A stretch of DNA of 63,192 bases, counting the filler, from Stramenopiles sp. TOSAG23-2 (Eukaryota), in assembly GCA_900128395.1 (NCBI GenBank). It is 7 parts of 7 records of this genome, joined end to end, with 100 filler letters (N's around TTAATTAATTAA, not from the genome) between each part and the next. Parts side by side here need not be neighbours in the genome. Positions count along the whole stretch, not along the records: positions 12,045 to 23,972 come from LT649889.1; 6 more parts are not named here. One strand, written 5' to 3'. The position numbers and the translations under genes were made by a program. Positions 15,044 through 21,143 of the stretch are shown piece by piece; the stretch's first letter is position 1, and each line of letters starts with the position of its first letter. Under the pieces are notes generated by a model that saw only the letters and a program-made list of their open reading frames with translations, was not told the origin of the DNA and ran no database searches.

Positions 15044-16648
15044 TCATCGAAAACCACGTCCTCTACCACCACTCATCTTTTTCAACATGACGCCAAGTCC
15101 AACTGCACCAGCTGCTAATAAAATTAATCCACCAGTTAACATTTCAGTTGATACATTATCAGGCATTAAAACACTTTGTGCCTCTGTTGCTTTTTCATCA
15201 AATCCACAATAATCATATTCATATGTTGATAAATCATATTCAGTTAAATGTGAACCAATTGCATTTAAACCATTGTTAATTAAACGTTCGTTAAAATTAC
15301 GTTGTAACCATAAGACTTCTGTTAATTGTTCTAAACATTGTTCAAAATTACATGCTAATAATCGATCTTCATTCATTACTAATACAGCTAATGCTACACG
15401 AATCAATTCTGTCCAGCCACCAGCAATAATACGATCAAATGAATATGATAATGCTGGTTCTTGCATTTTACTTGCAAACAACGGTAAAATCCAACTCGGT
15501 AACCATAATATTGGCGTGATTTCCAATTCTTCGAAATGTACATGTAATTTCGGTGCAACTTTTTTCAATGCCATGTCTGTTTGATATAATGCTAAATGCA
15601 AACGTGACATCCCATTTGTAAATATATCAGCTAAATTATATTTAGGTTTTTTCATTAACGCATCTAAAATCCAAAAAACATCTTCTTCACATGCATGCAT
15701 CAACATGTAACCGGAAATAAAATTCATTCCTTGTACATATCCAACTTGTGGATTATGAATGGAATACGCATTTAAAACACGTCTTAAACGCTGTTGACCT
15801 AATCCATCTTTTTTTTTGTACATTTCTGTTGTTGGAAATGTTCTTGAAACATCACGCATAATTTGTTCATCATTATCTTTACTAAAACCATTACCAAGCA
15901 ATGCATTGTATTTTCCTTCAACAATATGTGCACCCGTATTTTCAAACCATTGTTGTATGCGTACAGATCGTTGGCTGTTTCTAGCATTTGCTTTTGATAT
16001 CAGCGACGAGACTGATAATTGTTTAGATAATTGTTGTTGTTCTCCTTCTGTATTATTATTATTAACATTACTTCTTGATGCAGGAGGAACAGAAACTTTC
16101 ATATTTGCAGCTAAGTTTGGCATTTCATTATTATTATTATTATTATTATTACTATTATTACTTTCACCTAGTAATTCTTGTTTTATTTCAAGATAGGAAC
16201 CACCTAATAATTCACTTTGTTGCGTTACTAAATTTTGTACATTGTTTTTAAATTTTTCATACTTTTGGTTGAATGAATTTTTCATGAATTCTTCAGCTAA
16301 TACAGTCGTAGTTAATTTTCCAGTAATTTCTAAACGTAATATATGCCCACGGGAATATGCTTCATTTGCTACTTTGTTTAAATCATTATCATTATGTAAA
16401 ACTATTTTATCGCCAGTAATACTATCAACGACTGAAAAAATATAATGATCGACTTGGAGATTCTCTGTCTCTAATTGTATCCAAGATCCAAATGAGGGAG
16501 TGAAAGAACGAACTAAAAATTCAAGGGATAAACGTTCATCCGCATCAAATGCTGTACGATACATTTTACCAGATGTGCATACTTTAATAATTTTCGGTGG
16601 TTTTCTTTCATTGTTCCCAATATTATTATTATTCACAATTGATGCCAT
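15044..16648 (-). CDS. TBC-domain Rab GTPase-activating protein with C-terminal TM anchor
   Basis: Arginine finger IMRDVSRTFP, glutamine finger GYVQGMNFI, EEDVFW; hydrophobic tail GGLILLAAGAVGLGVML. Confidence 0.92.
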   Translation of the reverse strand: MASIVNNNNIGNNERKPPKIIKVCTSGKMYRTAFDADERLSLEFLVRSFTPSFGSWIQLETENLQVDHYIFSVVDSITGDKIVLHNDNDLNKVANEAYSRGHILRLEITGKLTTTVLAEEFMKNSFNQKYEKFKNNVQNLVTQQSELLGGSYLEIKQELLGESNNSNNNNNNNNEMPNLAANMKVSVPPASRSNVNNNNTEGEQQQLSKQLSVSSLISKANARNSQRSVRIQQWFENTGAHIVEGKYNALLGNGFSKDNDEQIMRDVSRTFPTTEMYKKKDGLGQQRLRRVLNAYSIHNPQVGYVQGMNFISGYMLMHACEEDVFWILDALMKKPKYNLADIFTNGMSRLHLALYQTDMALKKVAPKLHVHFEELEITPILWLPSWILPLFASKMQEPALSYSFDRIIAGGWTELIRVALAVLVMNEDRLLACNFEQCLEQLTEVLWLQRNFNERLINNGLNAIGSHLTEYDLSTYEYDYCGFDEKATEAQSVLMPDNVSTEMLTGGLILLAAGAVGLGVMLKKMSGGRGRGFR

Positions 16649-17194
16649 GCTATGTGTGTGTGTGTGTGCGTGTGTACAAAATTACGATATCTAATGTACA
16701 GTAATTAAATTATCTATATTATTATGAATAATACAAATATGCTACGCATTATCTATTTATGTCTCTCTATGGGTATAAATTTATGACTTTCCTATATGGT
16801 TGAATGTACTATATATATATGTTTTTTAGTTTTAGTTTTGAAAAAATATATTGAAGTAAGAAGAATGTTGGAGGATAGTTCCGGAGACGGTATGTATTAT
16901 AATGCTATGTGCCTCTTATAATATTGGTATATAATAGTATAGTAATAGCATTGATATTTAGCATAAATTTTTTACATTTTGTTTGATGAAAGAAACTCCC
17001 TCTGCATCAAAATAAAAAGAAAAAAAGGGAGGGTGGCAGTCGGTGCGCATCTTCTTCGAATTAACACACAGTGTTTATTAAACCAGTATAATATATACAA
17101 TACATGTATTAGTAGATATCAAAATACATACAAGAAACAATGTATTACATACATCAATAGATTCGTAAGTAATAACAAAAAATTTAAACATAAA

Positions 17195-19252
17195 ATGCGT
17201 AGTTTTCTTTATATGTTCAATCAACGTAGCACAAAATGTGTGTTACCTGTCTTTTTTATATGTACATTATTTTTGTCGTTTTCATCTGTAAATATTTTTT
17301 GTCGGCCGCCATCTTTATTATTATCGACTTCTTCTTCTAATAATAATAATGACAACAACAACAATAACTATTGTAATGGTAACACATTTTTAGTTTCAGC
17401 TACTTATATACGAAGTAAGAATCCAAGGCATGCTACAAAACAACATGGGTTAACTATTAAAGAAATTGCTAAAGGGGAAGTTGATGGTCTAGATATTATG
17501 AAACAATATGAATTAGATAGGGCACATCCACCAAAACCAGAATCGATGAAAGATAAAAATGGTTTACCAAACTATAATATGCAATCTTTATACGTAGATG
17601 GATTTCCTAAAACGAAAAAACTAGTAGATAGCGCAAGGAAAATGTTTCCACATTACCAAATTAGTCCAAATAGATTAATCGAACCATTAGCTAGTCACAC
17701 TGCTACCATTTCATCCTTATCAAAATTTTCAGAAGATCCAAAAGTATATGGTATGCATGGTGCAGGACTACGTGGCGGTGCACCAAATATTGGTTTGCAA
17801 CCAAACAATTGGGAAACGAATGATCCAAATACAGGAGGTCCAAGCCTACTGTATCAACAATATTCGACACATCAATATGATATGAAACTTACCGATGTGG
17901 CAGATCCAATAGAAAATGCCCATGTTTTAAAAAACTCAATCATTCAAGATCCAATAAAACAAAGACATTTTAATGCGGAAAGTGTTTCAGGAAAAGCTTT
18001 TATGATGAGTGGACAATATGCAGGACCTACTGTTGGTAATCCATCTAGCCCTGGAGGTCCGGGCAATGTTGCTAATAATAATAATAATAATAATGCAGTT
18101 GCTGGAGGAGGATCTAATTCTGCTGAAGGAGGATCCAATGCTGCTGGAGGCGGTGGTGGCAATGTTGCTGGCAGTAATGCTGCTTCATCTTCCAATCTTG
18201 GTGATAGTTCTGCAAGTAGTAGTTCAAGTCTGAAAGGAAGTTCTTCGGCTAGCTTTGAGTCAATTAAGGGATCAAATGCGGCAATTGAAGCACATCAATT
18301 GAGTGCAGAAGAACATGAAAGGAATGCAGATCATAATGAGAATGAAGCAAGTCAACTGCGCGAACAGGCAAAAGATTTATCAGGAGAAGAAAAAGAGATG
18401 GTCATGGAACAAGCAAATACATATCAACAATCGGCACAGCGAGAACATCAAATTGCAGCAATGGAGGATAAAAAAATAGCAGATACAAGCGATGATACAG
18501 ATGATAGTGATGGTGAGGAGGAAGAAATAGAACAAAAATCTGAGCAAAGAGAACAGCAACAGCAACAAAGTGGACAAGGTAAAGATGGCGATCCAGGAAT
18601 GCCATGTAAAAGGAACGCACCTGGAAAATGTGGACCACGATCTCAATGCGAACAACGAAAAGGGATGACTCCACAGCCAGGCTATTGCAACGGCGGTAGT
18701 GAGAATATATGCTGCGTACGCCACAATCCAAATGAAGATAAGCCACCAGTCAAAACGTCAGGATCTGGTAGTTGTCCTGGTCAGCAAGTATGGCAAAAAG
18801 TTTTGAATAACCCTGGAATTCAGTTAAATAATTTTCATCCTAGTGGAGTACAAGATAATGCGGATCCAAAGAAGCAAGTGCAAGCTGCAGCGCAAGGAAT
18901 GAAAGCAGAGCGTTCAAGTTATGGGAATGCACCGGGTGGAAGCACATGTTTGTCACCAAGAGTTGCAGAATTTTTGTTAAAACTTGGAAATAAATATGGT
19001 GGTGTTGGTGTCAACTCTATCGCTGGCGCGAGCCATAGCAAGAGTTCGTCTCATTATAGAGGCACGACAATAGATGTCGGAAAATTGAAAGGTAGAGTAT
19101 TGAATGATGTAGAAATGGCGAAATTAGTTGTCAATACGTGTGTGCTCGAAATGGGAGGTGCAGCTATTTCTAACCCAGGTGGTAGGAAAATACCAAATAC
19201 TAAAAATTTTGGAGGGCATAAAACTTGGGTTCATTGTGGTTTGAGGTTGTAA
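17195..19252 (+). CDS. Secreted protein with 6-Cys module and C-terminal zinc D-Ala-D-Ala peptidase-like (M15/LAS) domain
   Basis: Likely ATG at 17195 with a hydrophobic signal (VLPVFFICTLFLSF). Cys module at 18605-18718. H-x6-D (SHYRGTTID) and terminal GHKTWVH. Confidence 0.75.
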   Translation: MRSFLYMFNQRSTKCVLPVFFICTLFLSFSSVNIFCRPPSLLLSTSSSNNNNDNNNNNYCNGNTFLVSATYIRSKNPRHATKQHGLTIKEIAKGEVDGLDIMKQYELDRAHPPKPESMKDKNGLPNYNMQSLYVDGFPKTKKLVDSARKMFPHYQISPNRLIEPLASHTATISSLSKFSEDPKVYGMHGAGLRGGAPNIGLQPNNWETNDPNTGGPSLLYQQYSTHQYDMKLTDVADPIENAHVLKNSIIQDPIKQRHFNAESVSGKAFMMSGQYAGPTVGNPSSPGGPGNVANNNNNNNAVAGGGSNSAEGGSNAAGGGGGNVAGSNAASSSNLGDSSASSSSSLKGSSSASFESIKGSNAAIEAHQLSAEEHERNADHNENEASQLREQAKDLSGEEKEMVMEQANTYQQSAQREHQIAAMEDKKIADTSDDTDDSDGEEEEIEQKSEQREQQQQQSGQGKDGDPGMPCKRNAPGKCGPRSQCEQRKGMTPQPGYCNGGSENICCVRHNPNEDKPPVKTSGSGSCPGQQVWQKVLNNPGIQLNNFHPSGVQDNADPKKQVQAAAQGMKAERSSYGNAPGGSTCLSPRVAEFLLKLGNKYGGVGVNSIAGASHSKSSSHYRGTTIDVGKLKGRVLNDVEMAKLVVNTCVLEMGGAAISNPGGRKIPNTKNFGGHKTWVHCGLRL

Positions 19253-19811
19253 AAATTTTTAAGAAGTGTGGTCAATAAAATACGAACTTTGTCCATACAT
19301 CATAATGGTTAAAATCTAAAGTTTAAATAATAATTTTGTCTTTCCGTGTGGGAAATACCACGCTCAATATACTCTATCTCAGAGGGAATAATATGTTAAT
19401 CCTCCCAATCTAAAAAAATGATTTGCTCCTATTATTAATAAAGCTCTCATGCGCCGCCGCAAGCTAAATACTCTATTAAAATATAAGCACAAGTAGGTCT
19501 GAATCCAGCATAACACCCTCGATGAAAGTGATGTGAACAGTCCATAAGTTTTCCAAAGTTTGATGGTTTTGAATTCTCCAGGAGTGGATTCATAGAGAGA
19601 TTATAAAATATTACGAACGTCGTAAAAAGGAAATATTTATACCGAAGAGGTATGATAGGCTATGATATCATATAAAATTGTAAAAAAACATATATATATA
19701 TATCATATTCATCTGATTACGTACACGTATCATACCCTGCTGTACTGCATGGTATATCATAACACTCTGGCATATGGTAAATACCAAAAGCTTCCGTAAA
19801 AAATTTTTTTC

Positions 19812-21143
19812 TCAATCAAATGCATCTAAATCCTCCTCCTCCTCCTCTTCTTCTTCTTCTTCTTCTTCTTCCACCTCCTCCAAACCGTTCTCATTTCCAT
19901 CATCATTATCACCGTCAACGATACCAACTAAAGTACCAATAGAATGCATCATATTGCCAACAATTTCATTATCATCAACAACTACTTCCATATCACCATT
20001 TTCCATTTCAACGTCGCTATCACCTTCATCATCACCACCTTCATCATCATCATCTTCTTCTTCTTCTAAATCATTGTTTTGACGCTCTAAATAATTTCTC
20101 ACCATTGAACGGACAATTGGAAATAATTGCTCTCTGGGCAAATCAATCAAATGTGACGCAATAAGATGTGGTAATCGGAATTGTAACGGGCCAAATTCAA
20201 TGATTATTGTTTCTGCAGATTCTTCTTGCACAGTAATTTCTATATCATTTTCATCATCATATATACCAGAATTATATGCCAGCACTTCGGTCCCTTGCTC
20301 TTTGTAATTTAGATTTAATGCTTCATCGTCCATATATGGATCTGTGCCAAGCTTTGGCATTTCAAAACTTGTATAAACCGTCCAACAACTTTGTAAAATG
20401 AAACCTTTATGTACAGGATGTCGTGAAAGAATATATCGTGGTACATCTCGACCTTCCACTGTTGCTCTTAGAAAATTACATGGCGTACCTGATCCAGGCT
20501 CACGTGTATCTGAATTTCCCCAACGCCAAGTGACAGAAACTTCCGTCCATATAGTATTTCCTCCTAACGAACGAGTCGTAGTCCCATCACGATTAAATTT
20601 AATTTTAATACATTCTTTTGATGAGCTCCAATATGGATCCTGTGAATACCAGCCATGTCCAGCTGCTTTTTTAAATCTAAAATTCCAATGAAAACTGGTC
20701 AGCTCTTCCAATGTTAAAACATTACGCTTGGTATCTTTGATAGTATTTTTAAAGATATTGATAAGATTATTGCCAACACTATTGGTATTATTTTGATAAA
20801 TGTGGTTGTTACTATGATGATTATTTTCTTTATTATTTTTACTATTATTATTAATTTCTTTCCGTATGCGACACCTATTTTCGGGTGATAATATCATTAG
20901 ACCATCTTTTAAATGTTTTGGCACATATGACAGTTGCGACCAATAACGCTGCAATAACAGCATCCATACAACAGGGCTCCGCGTTGAGTCATACCACTCT
21001 TTATTTACATATGAGTAAATTTTTACAATATCTTTGAATCTAAAAAATGTTAATGTCTTACATATGCCAACTTGTGGCATTGAATAATTGGAATTATTAT
21101 CATTATTGCTGTTTTTCTGATTTGCAACTACTAAACCTGCCAT
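19812..21143 (-). CDS. F-box-like protein with acidic tail
   Basis: N-terminal FFRFKDIVKIYSYVNKEWYDSTRSPVVW is F-box-like; conserved-looking WNFRFKKAAG...DPYW domain; poly-Glu/Asp C-terminus. Confidence 0.6.
   Translation of the reverse strand: MAGLVVANQKNSNNDNNSNYSMPQVGICKTLTFFRFKDIVKIYSYVNKEWYDSTRSPVVWMLLLQRYWSQLSYVPKHLKDGLMILSPENRCRIRKEINNNSKNNKENNHHSNNHIYQNNTNSVGNNLINIFKNTIKDTKRNVLTLEELTSFHWNFRFKKAAGHGWYSQDPYWSSSKECIKIKFNRDGTTTRSLGGNTIWTEVSVTWRWGNSDTREPGSGTPCNFLRATVEGRDVPRYILSRHPVHKGFILQSCWTVYTSFEMPKLGTDPYMDDEALNLNYKEQGTEVLAYNSGIYDDENDIEITVQEESAETIIIEFGPLQFRLPHLIASHLIDLPREQLFPIVRSMVRNYLERQNNDLEEEEDDDDEGGDDEGDSDVEMENGDMEVVVDDNEIVGNMMHSIGTLVGIVDGDNDDGNENGLEEVEEEEEEEEEEEEEDLDAFD

Follow-up and report, generated by a model that had tools for sequence, protein, structure and literature searches.

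In LAS peptidases, the zinc ion is bound by a histidine and an aspartate spaced as H-x(n)-D together with the second histidine of an H-x-H segment, while the first histidine of that segment is not a ligand and has been proposed to activate the catalytic water in M23 and LAS enzymes, according to the accessible text of PMC9662197. The Hedgehog/DD-peptidase motif given in the available part of PMC6027127 agrees with the ligand set of 1LBU, the Streptomyces albus G muramoyl-pentapeptide carboxypeptidase, and the same text describes 'bacHh' proteins that are more than 50% identical to ShhN. In animals, rusticalin combines two Cx6Cx6-7Cx8Cx7CC repeats, beta-defensin-like by HHpred, with a subsequent Hedgehog/DD-peptidase-fold domain that is closest to the phage A500/Ply500 L-Ala-D-Glu peptidase (2VO9); rusticalin-like proteins are reported from tunicates, amphioxus, a coral and Trichoplax, and a bacterial origin by transfer has been proposed (PMC6339383, as far as its text is accessible). 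Here we analyse a gene of Stramenopiles sp. TOSAG23-2 located at 17195..19252 (+) of the window, i.e. the whole stretch of 63,192 nucleotides joined from seven records of assembly GCA_900128395.1, in the part that derives from LT649889.1. The gene is an uninterrupted open reading frame (ORF) of 685 residues in a single exon, and the protein ends in a LAS-type domain. Based on detailed analyses of its sequence, predicted structure, relatives and occurrence in RNA data, we propose that it is a prey-wall protein with a peptidoglycan-directed zinc domain that is probably catalytic, a reading which, taken as a whole, we regard as reasonably likely.

Small uncultured flagellates do much of the marine bacterial grazing, and to our knowledge the enzymes with which they open bacterial walls are largely unknown beyond lysozymes. 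The gene had been picked out in a reading of the DNA alone, hereafter the original prediction, which placed the C-terminal domain among the LAS/M15 peptidases and suggested that the organism had acquired a cell-wall hydrolase horizontally.

A LAS-type domain in which tryptophan replaces a histidine

The LAS-fold (M15A/Hedgehog-like) zinc-peptidase-type domain spans residues 527-685 (18773..19249, with the codon of C527 at 18773), as delimited by profile search and an AlphaFold2 model. Scans of the C-terminal 220 residues against Pfam, NCBIfam and PHROGs returned nothing relevant, and a single-sequence phmmer search against the PDB gave ceruloplasmin and amylin, both chance matches that were discarded. 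When 1.84 billion cluster representatives were searched exhaustively with HMMER, 460 proteins passed E <= 1e-3, of which 215 also passed E <= 1e-10. The family alignment (152 rows) was built from 150 listed matches of the 460 together with the window protein. In window numbering, the conserved core comprises His548, Ser550-Gly551, Asp554, Arg573-Ser574-x-Tyr576, Ala-Pro-Gly-Gly at 579-582, Ala-Gly-x-Ser-His614, Ser618-x-His620-Tyr-x-Gly-x-Ala-x-Asp627, Gly633, Gly654, Pro661 and Gly674-His675-x-x-His678-x-His680.

The H-x6-D segment of the window protein (19052..19075) reads S618-S-H620-Y-R-G-T-T-I-D627, i.e. S618-x-H-x-x-G-x-T-x-D, and is predicted to supply the first two zinc ligands, His620 (codon at 19052) and Asp627 (19073), where the family carries histidine in 149 of 150 and aspartate in 148 of 150 rows, respectively. 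The third predicted ligand, His680 (19232), is histidine in 119 of 119 rows and belongs to the terminal segment H675-K-T-W678-V-H680 (19217..19234), which begins with His675 (19217). In this segment, Trp678 (19226) replaces the first histidine of H-x-H, a position occupied by histidine in 107 and by tryptophan in 12 of 119 rows. Another histidine, His614 (19034..19036), is conserved in 149/150 rows and aligns with His135 of Sonic hedgehog (Shh) by our own count. With H620, D627 and H680 invariant or changed in few rows, the motifs recognized in the original prediction are not due to chance; the tryptophan that it noted in H-x-H is real as well, though the residue replaced is the first histidine and not the middle one, as had been stated.

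A profile of 66 members matched 1LBU among the PDB sequences with an E-value of 3.5e-6, and, between E 1e-4 (Shh) and 0.1, the N-domains of Sonic, Indian and Desert hedgehog. In the profile alignment, the family segment S-x-H-x-x-G-x-A-x-D falls on residues 152-161 of 1LBU, placing H620 and D627 on His154 and Asp161, and G-H-x-x-H-x-H falls on residues 191-197 (His192, His195 and His197), with W678 opposite His195. The zinc ligands of 1LBU are, as we take them from MEROPS, His154, Asp161 and His197. Shh and the family have H-Y-x-G-x-A-x-D and H-x-H-C segments in common. Curated models touch the family only marginally: Peptidase_M15_3 was matched by three of 66 relatives, all below threshold (best 22.6 bits against a cut-off of 23.2), and Pfam HH_signal weakly by one of 66 (E 0.0044). 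The window protein itself has no HH_signal match and no Hint/Hog part, the chain ending five residues after H680. On its sequence, the domain is an uncurated branch of the LAS/M15A-like fold, closest in sequence to M15A and a member of the clan (MD in MEROPS) or fold that lies outside the curated families, and the earlier LAS/M15 assignment is borne out by the 1LBU profile match, the motif alignment and the concordant fold matches described below.

Predicted structure

AlphaFold2 modelling of residues 520-685 with the 66-sequence alignment yielded a predicted local distance difference test score (pLDDT) of 93.4 and a predicted template modelling score of 0.88. In the structural search with VIA, Hedgehog N-domains came first (Z 8.8, 8.6 and 8.0; root-mean-square deviation (rmsd) 2.8-3.0; 104-111 residues aligned), followed by 1LBU (7.5), MepA (6.9), VldE (6.6), Ply500 (6.4), LysB4 (6.1) and VanX (6.1). 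DacB, VanXYg, LdcB, VanXYc and the T5 endolysin were found at Z 4.8-4.1, and unrelated folds appeared from Z ~4. All entries at ranks 1-14 are thus LAS peptidases or Hedgehog N-domains. Foldseek against the PDB listed VldE, MepA, Hedgehog, LdcB, VanXYc and 1LBU as its best, weak rows, and against the viral collection BFVD it gave weak matches (best E 2.1e-3) with many names of the types 'Peptidase M15A, C-terminal', tape-measure and murein endopeptidase. A model computed from the single sequence was poor (pLDDT 46.7), and the VIA search with that model was uninformative. The predicted structure of the C-terminal domain is that of the Hedgehog/DD-peptidase fold.

Distribution and phylogeny

The 12 tryptophan rows of the alignment comprise two that are the window protein itself, the close relatives P0003, P0004 and P0005, the rows P0006 and P0007, with EukProt 'Stramenopile-MAST_4' proteins among their cluster members, a Telonema subtile transcript (P0008), a protein of the diplonemid Namystynia karyoxenos (P0077), and P0009, P0011 and P0116, which carry no source name. 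MAST-4, Telonema and the diplonemid Namystynia are all, we take it, bacterivores. All ten other conserved positions checked are kept in 9 of the 12 rows, and two further rows, which are N-terminally truncated, keep every position they cover; the metal ligands, His614, His675, Arg573, Ser574 and Tyr576 are conserved across the clade.

Trees were calculated without 19 fragmentary rows (among them P0004, P0015 and P0077) and without P0002, the window's own fragment. In a FastTree phylogeny of 199 rows, nine Trp-type rows and P0085, which has serine at the site, are separated from all others by a branch with support 99. The same ten rows are recovered at 100/98 by IQ-TREE (88 rows, 149 columns, LG+C20), a tree whose 88 rows were drawn from the 199: the 15 eukaryote-type rows in full, one in three of the other leaves, and 14 named loci that were selected. 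These trees are unrooted, containing no 1LBU or Hedgehog outgroup, the bootstrap had not fully settled, and P0085 sits on a long branch. Trp678 is, in these phylogenies, a trait of a well-supported protist clade that spans several eukaryotic supergroups and has the Cys module described below in common.

Animals carry the family, too. The members from Crassostrea virginica, Magallana gigas, Acanthaster planci and Pomacea canaliculata all keep H-x-H, and five rows (C. virginica, M. gigas, A. planci and one metagenome protein) form a separate clade at 99/99 with bacterial rows around it in the free tree; the Pomacea protein was too short to be included. The animal rows (P0052, P0140, P0137, P0056 and P0057, from oysters, crown-of-thorns starfish and apple snail) are uncharacterised, secreted-looking, Cys-rich proteins. 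Constraining protists and animals to one clade gave a tree 2.0 log-likelihood units better than the free one, and the constraint was not rejected by the approximately unbiased (AU) test (p-AU 0.53). A recent transfer into the lineage of this organism is not supported, because the protist clade is old and covers several supergroups and the codon usage is host-like; one ancient transfer, several transfers, or spread from eukaryote to eukaryote are the candidate histories. The original prediction of horizontal acquisition by the organism is not supported, in view of the separate protist clade at 100/98, the presence of the family in animals and a single eukaryotic clade that is not rejected. It had named broad vertical eukaryotic inheritance as what would speak against the transfer alone, and this objection applies in part: a broad distribution is found, in a tree that is unrooted.

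Bacterial members were collected by scanning genomes with a degenerate DNA pattern for R-S-S-Y-G-[NT]-A-P-G-G, a sample that is biased towards this exact motif. The scan returned at least 120 loci, and hmmsearch separated the matches listed into 67 true members and 53 chance occurrences. Among the matches listed, no other named carriers are as numerous as the marine Akkermansiaceae and Verrucomicrobiales, of which there are many; also included are five Herpetosiphon genomes, plasmid pHAU01 and other Chloroflexota as well as Bradyrhizobium, Mesorhizobium, Streptomyces, Lentzea, Cohnella, a Deinococcus plasmid and Vulcanimicrobiota. In Herpetosiphon, which we take to be a predatory genus of Chloroflexota, the family is found both on the chromosome and on plasmid pHAU01 (loci L078, L109, L001, L023, L029 and L061). 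In the sources, bacterial members go by the name 'peptidoglycan-binding protein' or 'hypothetical protein'. Among 45 relatives scanned, 15 carry PG_binding_1, VanY, Phage_lysozyme (GH24), GH19, GH46 or Glucosaminidase, and 23 are without any Pfam family. The 67 bacterial loci among the matches listed and these peptidoglycan-related fusions show a family that is bacterial for the most part, as stated in the original prediction, and linked to peptidoglycan domains. As a separate observation, pilin matches turned up in a few of the 66 family members, namely to Pfam T4SS_pilin in three (best E 1.6e-8) and to TrbC/VirB2 pilin in one, which suggests that some bacterial members may be fused to parts of conjugation or type IV secretion pilins.

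Protein architecture

The coordinates of the ORF and its residues given in the original prediction were exact on recount. The start codon and a signal-peptide-like N-terminus occupy 17195..17302 (residues 1-36), where a basic n-region with arginine and lysine precedes a core of hydrophobic residues (15-29; mean Kyte-Doolittle hydropathy 2.49) that has no counterpart elsewhere in the protein. The segment, noted earlier as signal-like, reads as a signal peptide or signal anchor, and by eye and hydropathy would direct secretion. A Ser/Asn-rich tract follows (residues 37-66, 17303..17392), assigned by composition, and then a conserved N-terminal region (residues 67-275, 17393..18019) with long invariant blocks common to P0005, P0167 and P0166, to which no fold is assigned. 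Beyond it lie a Gly/Ser/Asn/Ala low-complexity linker (residues 276-352, 18020..18250), the length of which differs among relatives, and an acidic Glu/Gln-rich segment (residues 353-465, 18251..18589) with a net charge of -20. The long low-complexity linker of the original prediction is accordingly confined to residues ~276-465, residues ~67-275 being conserved and non-repetitive.

The acidic segment is succeeded by a 6-Cys module, C-x7-C-x5-C-x12-C-x7-CC, at residues 471-507 (18605..18715, the codon of C471 starting at 18605), found by pattern match; the six cysteines had been noted in the original prediction. Its net charge is +4, and that of the LAS domain +11; both are present in one copy within the window. 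A search of the 172 proteins compared with a more general pattern, C-x(4-9)-C-x(3-7)-C-x(6-14)-C-x(5-9)-CC, gave matches in 13, every one of them a family member. A single module, spaced 7-5-12-7 or 7-5-11-7, is seen in the window protein and its close relatives; P0008, P0009 and P0093 have at least two, and the protist relatives range from one to nine, with the same C-terminal domain. In P0009, the order is GH24, two Cys modules and the LAS domain, and P0006 combines a Cys module and a Trp-type domain with a GH19-like domain. Single modules also precede the domain in P0052 (6-6-7-7) and in P0016, a metagenome protein that groups with the animals (6-6-9-7), spacings that resemble those of rusticalin. 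The module has no Pfam match, and an Atlas look-up gave no usable hit; by reading alone, its cysteine pattern fits the six cysteines ending in CC of beta-defensin-like proteins. In a single-sequence model, the Cys part shows strands at pLDDT 64-81, and the fold search barely covered the module. We also note P0077 (1450 residues), in which a Trp-type LAS domain lies N-terminally, together with at least nine Cys modules, GH24, GH19 and a hydrophobic C-terminal stretch, making it a putative multi-enzyme bacteriolytic protein.

For residues 67-275, two homology searches found only close relatives, and there was no Pfam, PHROG or PDB sequence match. A designer pentatricopeptide repeat (PPR) protein proposed by phmmer against the PDB (E 4.7e-4) was rejected as spurious, being the sum of eight weak repeat stretches. 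A protein-language-model look-up gave a weak lead to phage SLT/lysozyme-like clusters (0.85-0.88, under the tool's line of 0.9). The region could be a second, glycan-cutting domain, and if the SLT/lysozyme-like lead is true, the protein would be bifunctional, like P0009. An E-S dipeptide is located at residues 116-117, with N-M-Q shortly downstream. A database protein, P0166 (733 residues), is 97-98% identical and has 48 extra N-terminal residues; in the window (17051-17194), the frame matching this extension meets a stop codon shortly after an ATG that lies upstream, and the first letters of the RNA contigs are at 17177 and 17190. Probably, either the gene call for P0166 reaches too far or the strains differ by an indel.

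Genomic setting and expression

The flanking ORFs on the same contig encode eukaryotic RabGAP-TBC, LRR, ankyrin, TruD/PUS7-like and PH-kinase proteins. The GC content at third codon positions (GC3) is 0.224, compared to 0.167-0.287 in 19 neighbouring ORFs; total GC rises in the 3' half to 0.41-0.48, compared to ~0.30 across the window. Poly-Asn tracts and the orphan eukaryotic N-terminal region lie in the same ORF as the LAS domain. At least half of the sampled words of the gene occur in 20 of 24 sequencing-run rows from 11 studies; seven of these 20 are RNA libraries, each with at least 0.69 of the words, and the rows outside the likely source samples are all marine.

RNA contigs of four marine studies (poly-A, oligo-dT or cDNA) cover 17177-19271 collinearly and without joints, and the gene therefore has no intron. 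The stop codon and a very short transcript 3' end lie at 19250..19271, the contigs of three studies ending at 19266, 19268 and 19271, i.e. 14-19 nucleotides after the stop codon, and the one ending at 19271 continues into adapter letters. A sequence may turn up in an RNA library without being transcribed; the 3' ends common to these studies hint weakly at transcription. Among the variants in the RNA contigs, six are synonymous and one is non-synonymous in the LAS domain, against three synonymous and nine non-synonymous (n=12) in the linker at residues 276-465 (one-sided Fisher p ~0.017, hand-calculated, from contigs that may mix strains). In the acidic part of the linker, too, a majority of the variants alter the residue. 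The LAS domain is under purifying selection in nature. The gene is integrated into its host genome, in agreement with the original prediction, as seen from its eukaryotic neighbours, the poly-A RNA contigs and the host-like GC3, and it appears to be expressed.

Downstream, the RNA-contig depth rises to 74-206 at 19404-19611, compared to 5-20 over the peptidase gene, with many short variant contigs and ends left loose at 19467, 19482, 19535 and 19595, which would fit a conserved gene with small exons that are spliced to sequence elsewhere. A minus-strand frame at 19450-19659 includes a C-x-H-x-x-H-x-x-C piece with weak, sub-threshold RING-finger Pfam matches (E 0.003-0.08). Rfam gave no match in 16600-19900. 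The neighbouring ORF at 19812-21143 (-) encodes 443 residues with Asn-rich tracts and a long Glu/Asp tail, and has no Pfam family.

Discussion

We propose the following mechanism for the protein, which we take to belong to a bacterivorous marine protist. Through its signal sequence it would enter the secretory pathway, most likely for delivery to the food vacuole or for release. The cationic Cys module (+4), presumably rich in disulfides and defensin-like, and the LAS domain (+11), both preceded by the acidic segment (-20), would then act on the anionic bacterial envelope; the charge layout recalls the prepropeptides of cationic antimicrobial peptides. With zinc presumably held by His620, Asp627 and His680, the LAS domain would bind the stem peptides of peptidoglycan and probably cut them, and so contribute to wall breakdown in bacteria that have been ingested. 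As tryptophan takes the place of the first histidine of H-x-H in the whole protist clade, the catalytic base would have to be another residue, for which His675 and His614 are candidates.

Several observations weigh against this proposal. The window protein matched 0 M15-type Pfam or NCBIfam families, i.e. no curated model above threshold, the VIA scores of Z 7-9 fall in the range that the tool calls 'middling', and Foldseek against the PDB gave no row at E <= 0.001 (best 0.023). The signal peptide was called by eye and hydropathy alone, and contig depth figures cannot show regulation by feeding. Moreover, Trp678 replaces the histidine that is proposed to activate the water, and the domain could be inactive (PMC9662197, in its accessible part). 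The domain is, however, probably not dead, as the remaining conserved residues are all retained in a deep clade, the natural variants stand at 6:1, and His675 (His192 in 1LBU) and His614 remain.

The same substitution underlies the view that the LAS domain retains zinc and grips stem peptides without cutting them, targeting the Cys module or lysozymes to the wall or serving as a pattern-recognition receptor, which we consider clearly less probable than a catalytic domain yet far from negligible. Trp replaces the proposed water activator in 12/12 protist-type rows, real glycosidase domains beside the LAS domain in P0006, P0009 and P0077 could supply the catalysis, and fly Hedgehog, with a LAS fold, lost motif residues and still functions, according to the available text of Roelink 2018 (PMC6027127). 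Against this, the three metal ligands, His614, His675, Arg573, Ser574 and Tyr576 are all conserved across the clade, and the window protein has no recognised glycosidase in the Pfam scan. Furthermore, LAS bases differ by subfamily, being Glu in VanX and Asp in Ply500, i.e. the base is not fixed within the fold, which also counts against mere binding. A target other than peptidoglycan appears improbable to us. In that case a Hedgehog-like domain would process or bind the protist's own surface or matrix proteins, or act as a signal, in line with Hedgehog N-domains in the top three structural rows (Z 8.8, 8.6 and 8.0 vs 7.5 for 1LBU), the Shh profile match at E 1e-4 and the weak HH_signal match in 1/66 members; however, the Z gaps are close to the tool's 1-unit tie margin, identity is 17-18%, a Hint/Hog part is lacking, and relatives are fused to lysozymes and peptidoglycan-binding domains rather than to signalling modules.

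Least probable of all, and hardly credible in our view, is a recent bacterial contaminant or a freshly transferred, undomesticated gene. The family is mostly bacterial (67 member loci among the matches listed) and the 3' half of the gene has a GC content of 0.41-0.48 compared to ~0.30, yet GC3 (0.224) is inside the range of the neighbours, the ORF includes poly-Asn and the orphan eukaryotic N-terminal region, eukaryotic genes flank it on one contig, poly-A RNA covers it, and its nearest relatives are protists (100/98). A far-reaching extension of the prey-wall proposal is that an old eukaryotic prey-wall cassette, made up of the Cys module and the Trp-type LAS domain and found from stramenopiles to Telonema, diplonemids and the organism studied here, is of one origin with the animal members, that this lineage and not today's bacterial DD-peptidases is the closest surviving kin of Hedgehog N, and that animal Hedgehog arose from a digestive enzyme of a phagotroph. 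This descent is suggested because the best structural matches are Hedgehog, the upstream histidine is in common with Shh and the AU p is 0.53; all parts taken jointly, we regard it as a long shot.

The gene points to a sizeable family of LAS peptidases (460 cluster representatives) missed by curated libraries, to a protist-specific W-x-H branch with a consistent change in the active site, and to a 6-Cys module that recurs, alongside LAS and lysozyme domains, in eukaryotes of several supergroups. Should the domain be active, stem-peptide cutting would be added to the digestive activities known from marine bacterivores, and the clade would constitute a natural experiment on a LAS enzyme without the first histidine of H-x-H. 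Eukaryotic proteins in which defensin-like repeats are joined to a wall peptidase of bacterial type are few, and the gene adds to their number.

Comparison with known systems

Among characterised enzymes, 1LBU gave the best profile match (E 3.5e-6), S-x-H-x-x-G-x-A-x-D and G-H-x-x-H-x-H align with it residue by residue, and the VIA superposition reaches Z 7.5 with an rmsd of 3.4 over 106 residues. Many bacterial family members have an N-terminal PG_binding_1, a domain that 1LBU presumably also has, and we take 1LBU to be classified as M15A in MEROPS. The two differ in that identity is 10% in the structural alignment, Trp678 stands where 1LBU has His195, and His614 stands where 1LBU is without a histidine (own count). 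In addition, Peptidase_M15_3 stays below threshold on every family member scanned, and the window protein is eukaryotic and multidomain. The Hedgehog N-domain is similarly close in structure (Z 8.8, rmsd 2.8, 111 residues) and by profile (E 1e-4), has the H-x6-D and H-x-H motifs in common and also carries a histidine six residues before the first ligand (His614 in the window, His135 in Shh, own count). In contrast to Hedgehog, the window protein is without the Hint autoprocessing domain, shows 17-18% identity and occurs in the context of peptidoglycan instead of signalling, and unlike bacHh proteins, the window family is not more than 50% identical to ShhN.

Titles and abstracts returned by searches of the open-access literature, which give no proof of absence, did not describe the family in protists, and in the literature found, defensin-like repeats combined with a bacterial-type wall peptidase are described only for animal rusticalin-like proteins. 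The animal family members retrieved by HMMER belong to the same family and are secreted-looking and Cys-rich, P0052 having one 6-Cys module before the domain; they differ from the window protein in keeping H-x-H, in forming their own clade (99/99) and in being short (174-239 residues). Compared to rusticalin as far as the accessible text describes it, the window protein is closest in sequence to 1LBU rather than to 2VO9, its module has the spacing 7-5-12-7, the N-terminal extension is long and H-x-H includes a tryptophan; rusticalin-like proteins have two repeats directly at the N-terminus in 248-271 residues, whereas the window protein has one module at 471-507 of 685. By description, both are eukaryotic proteins, rusticalin secreted and the window protein predicted to be, in which six cysteines ending in CC precede a bacterial-type Hedgehog/DD-peptidase-fold domain, and animal rusticalin appears to be the nearest described architecture that we found.

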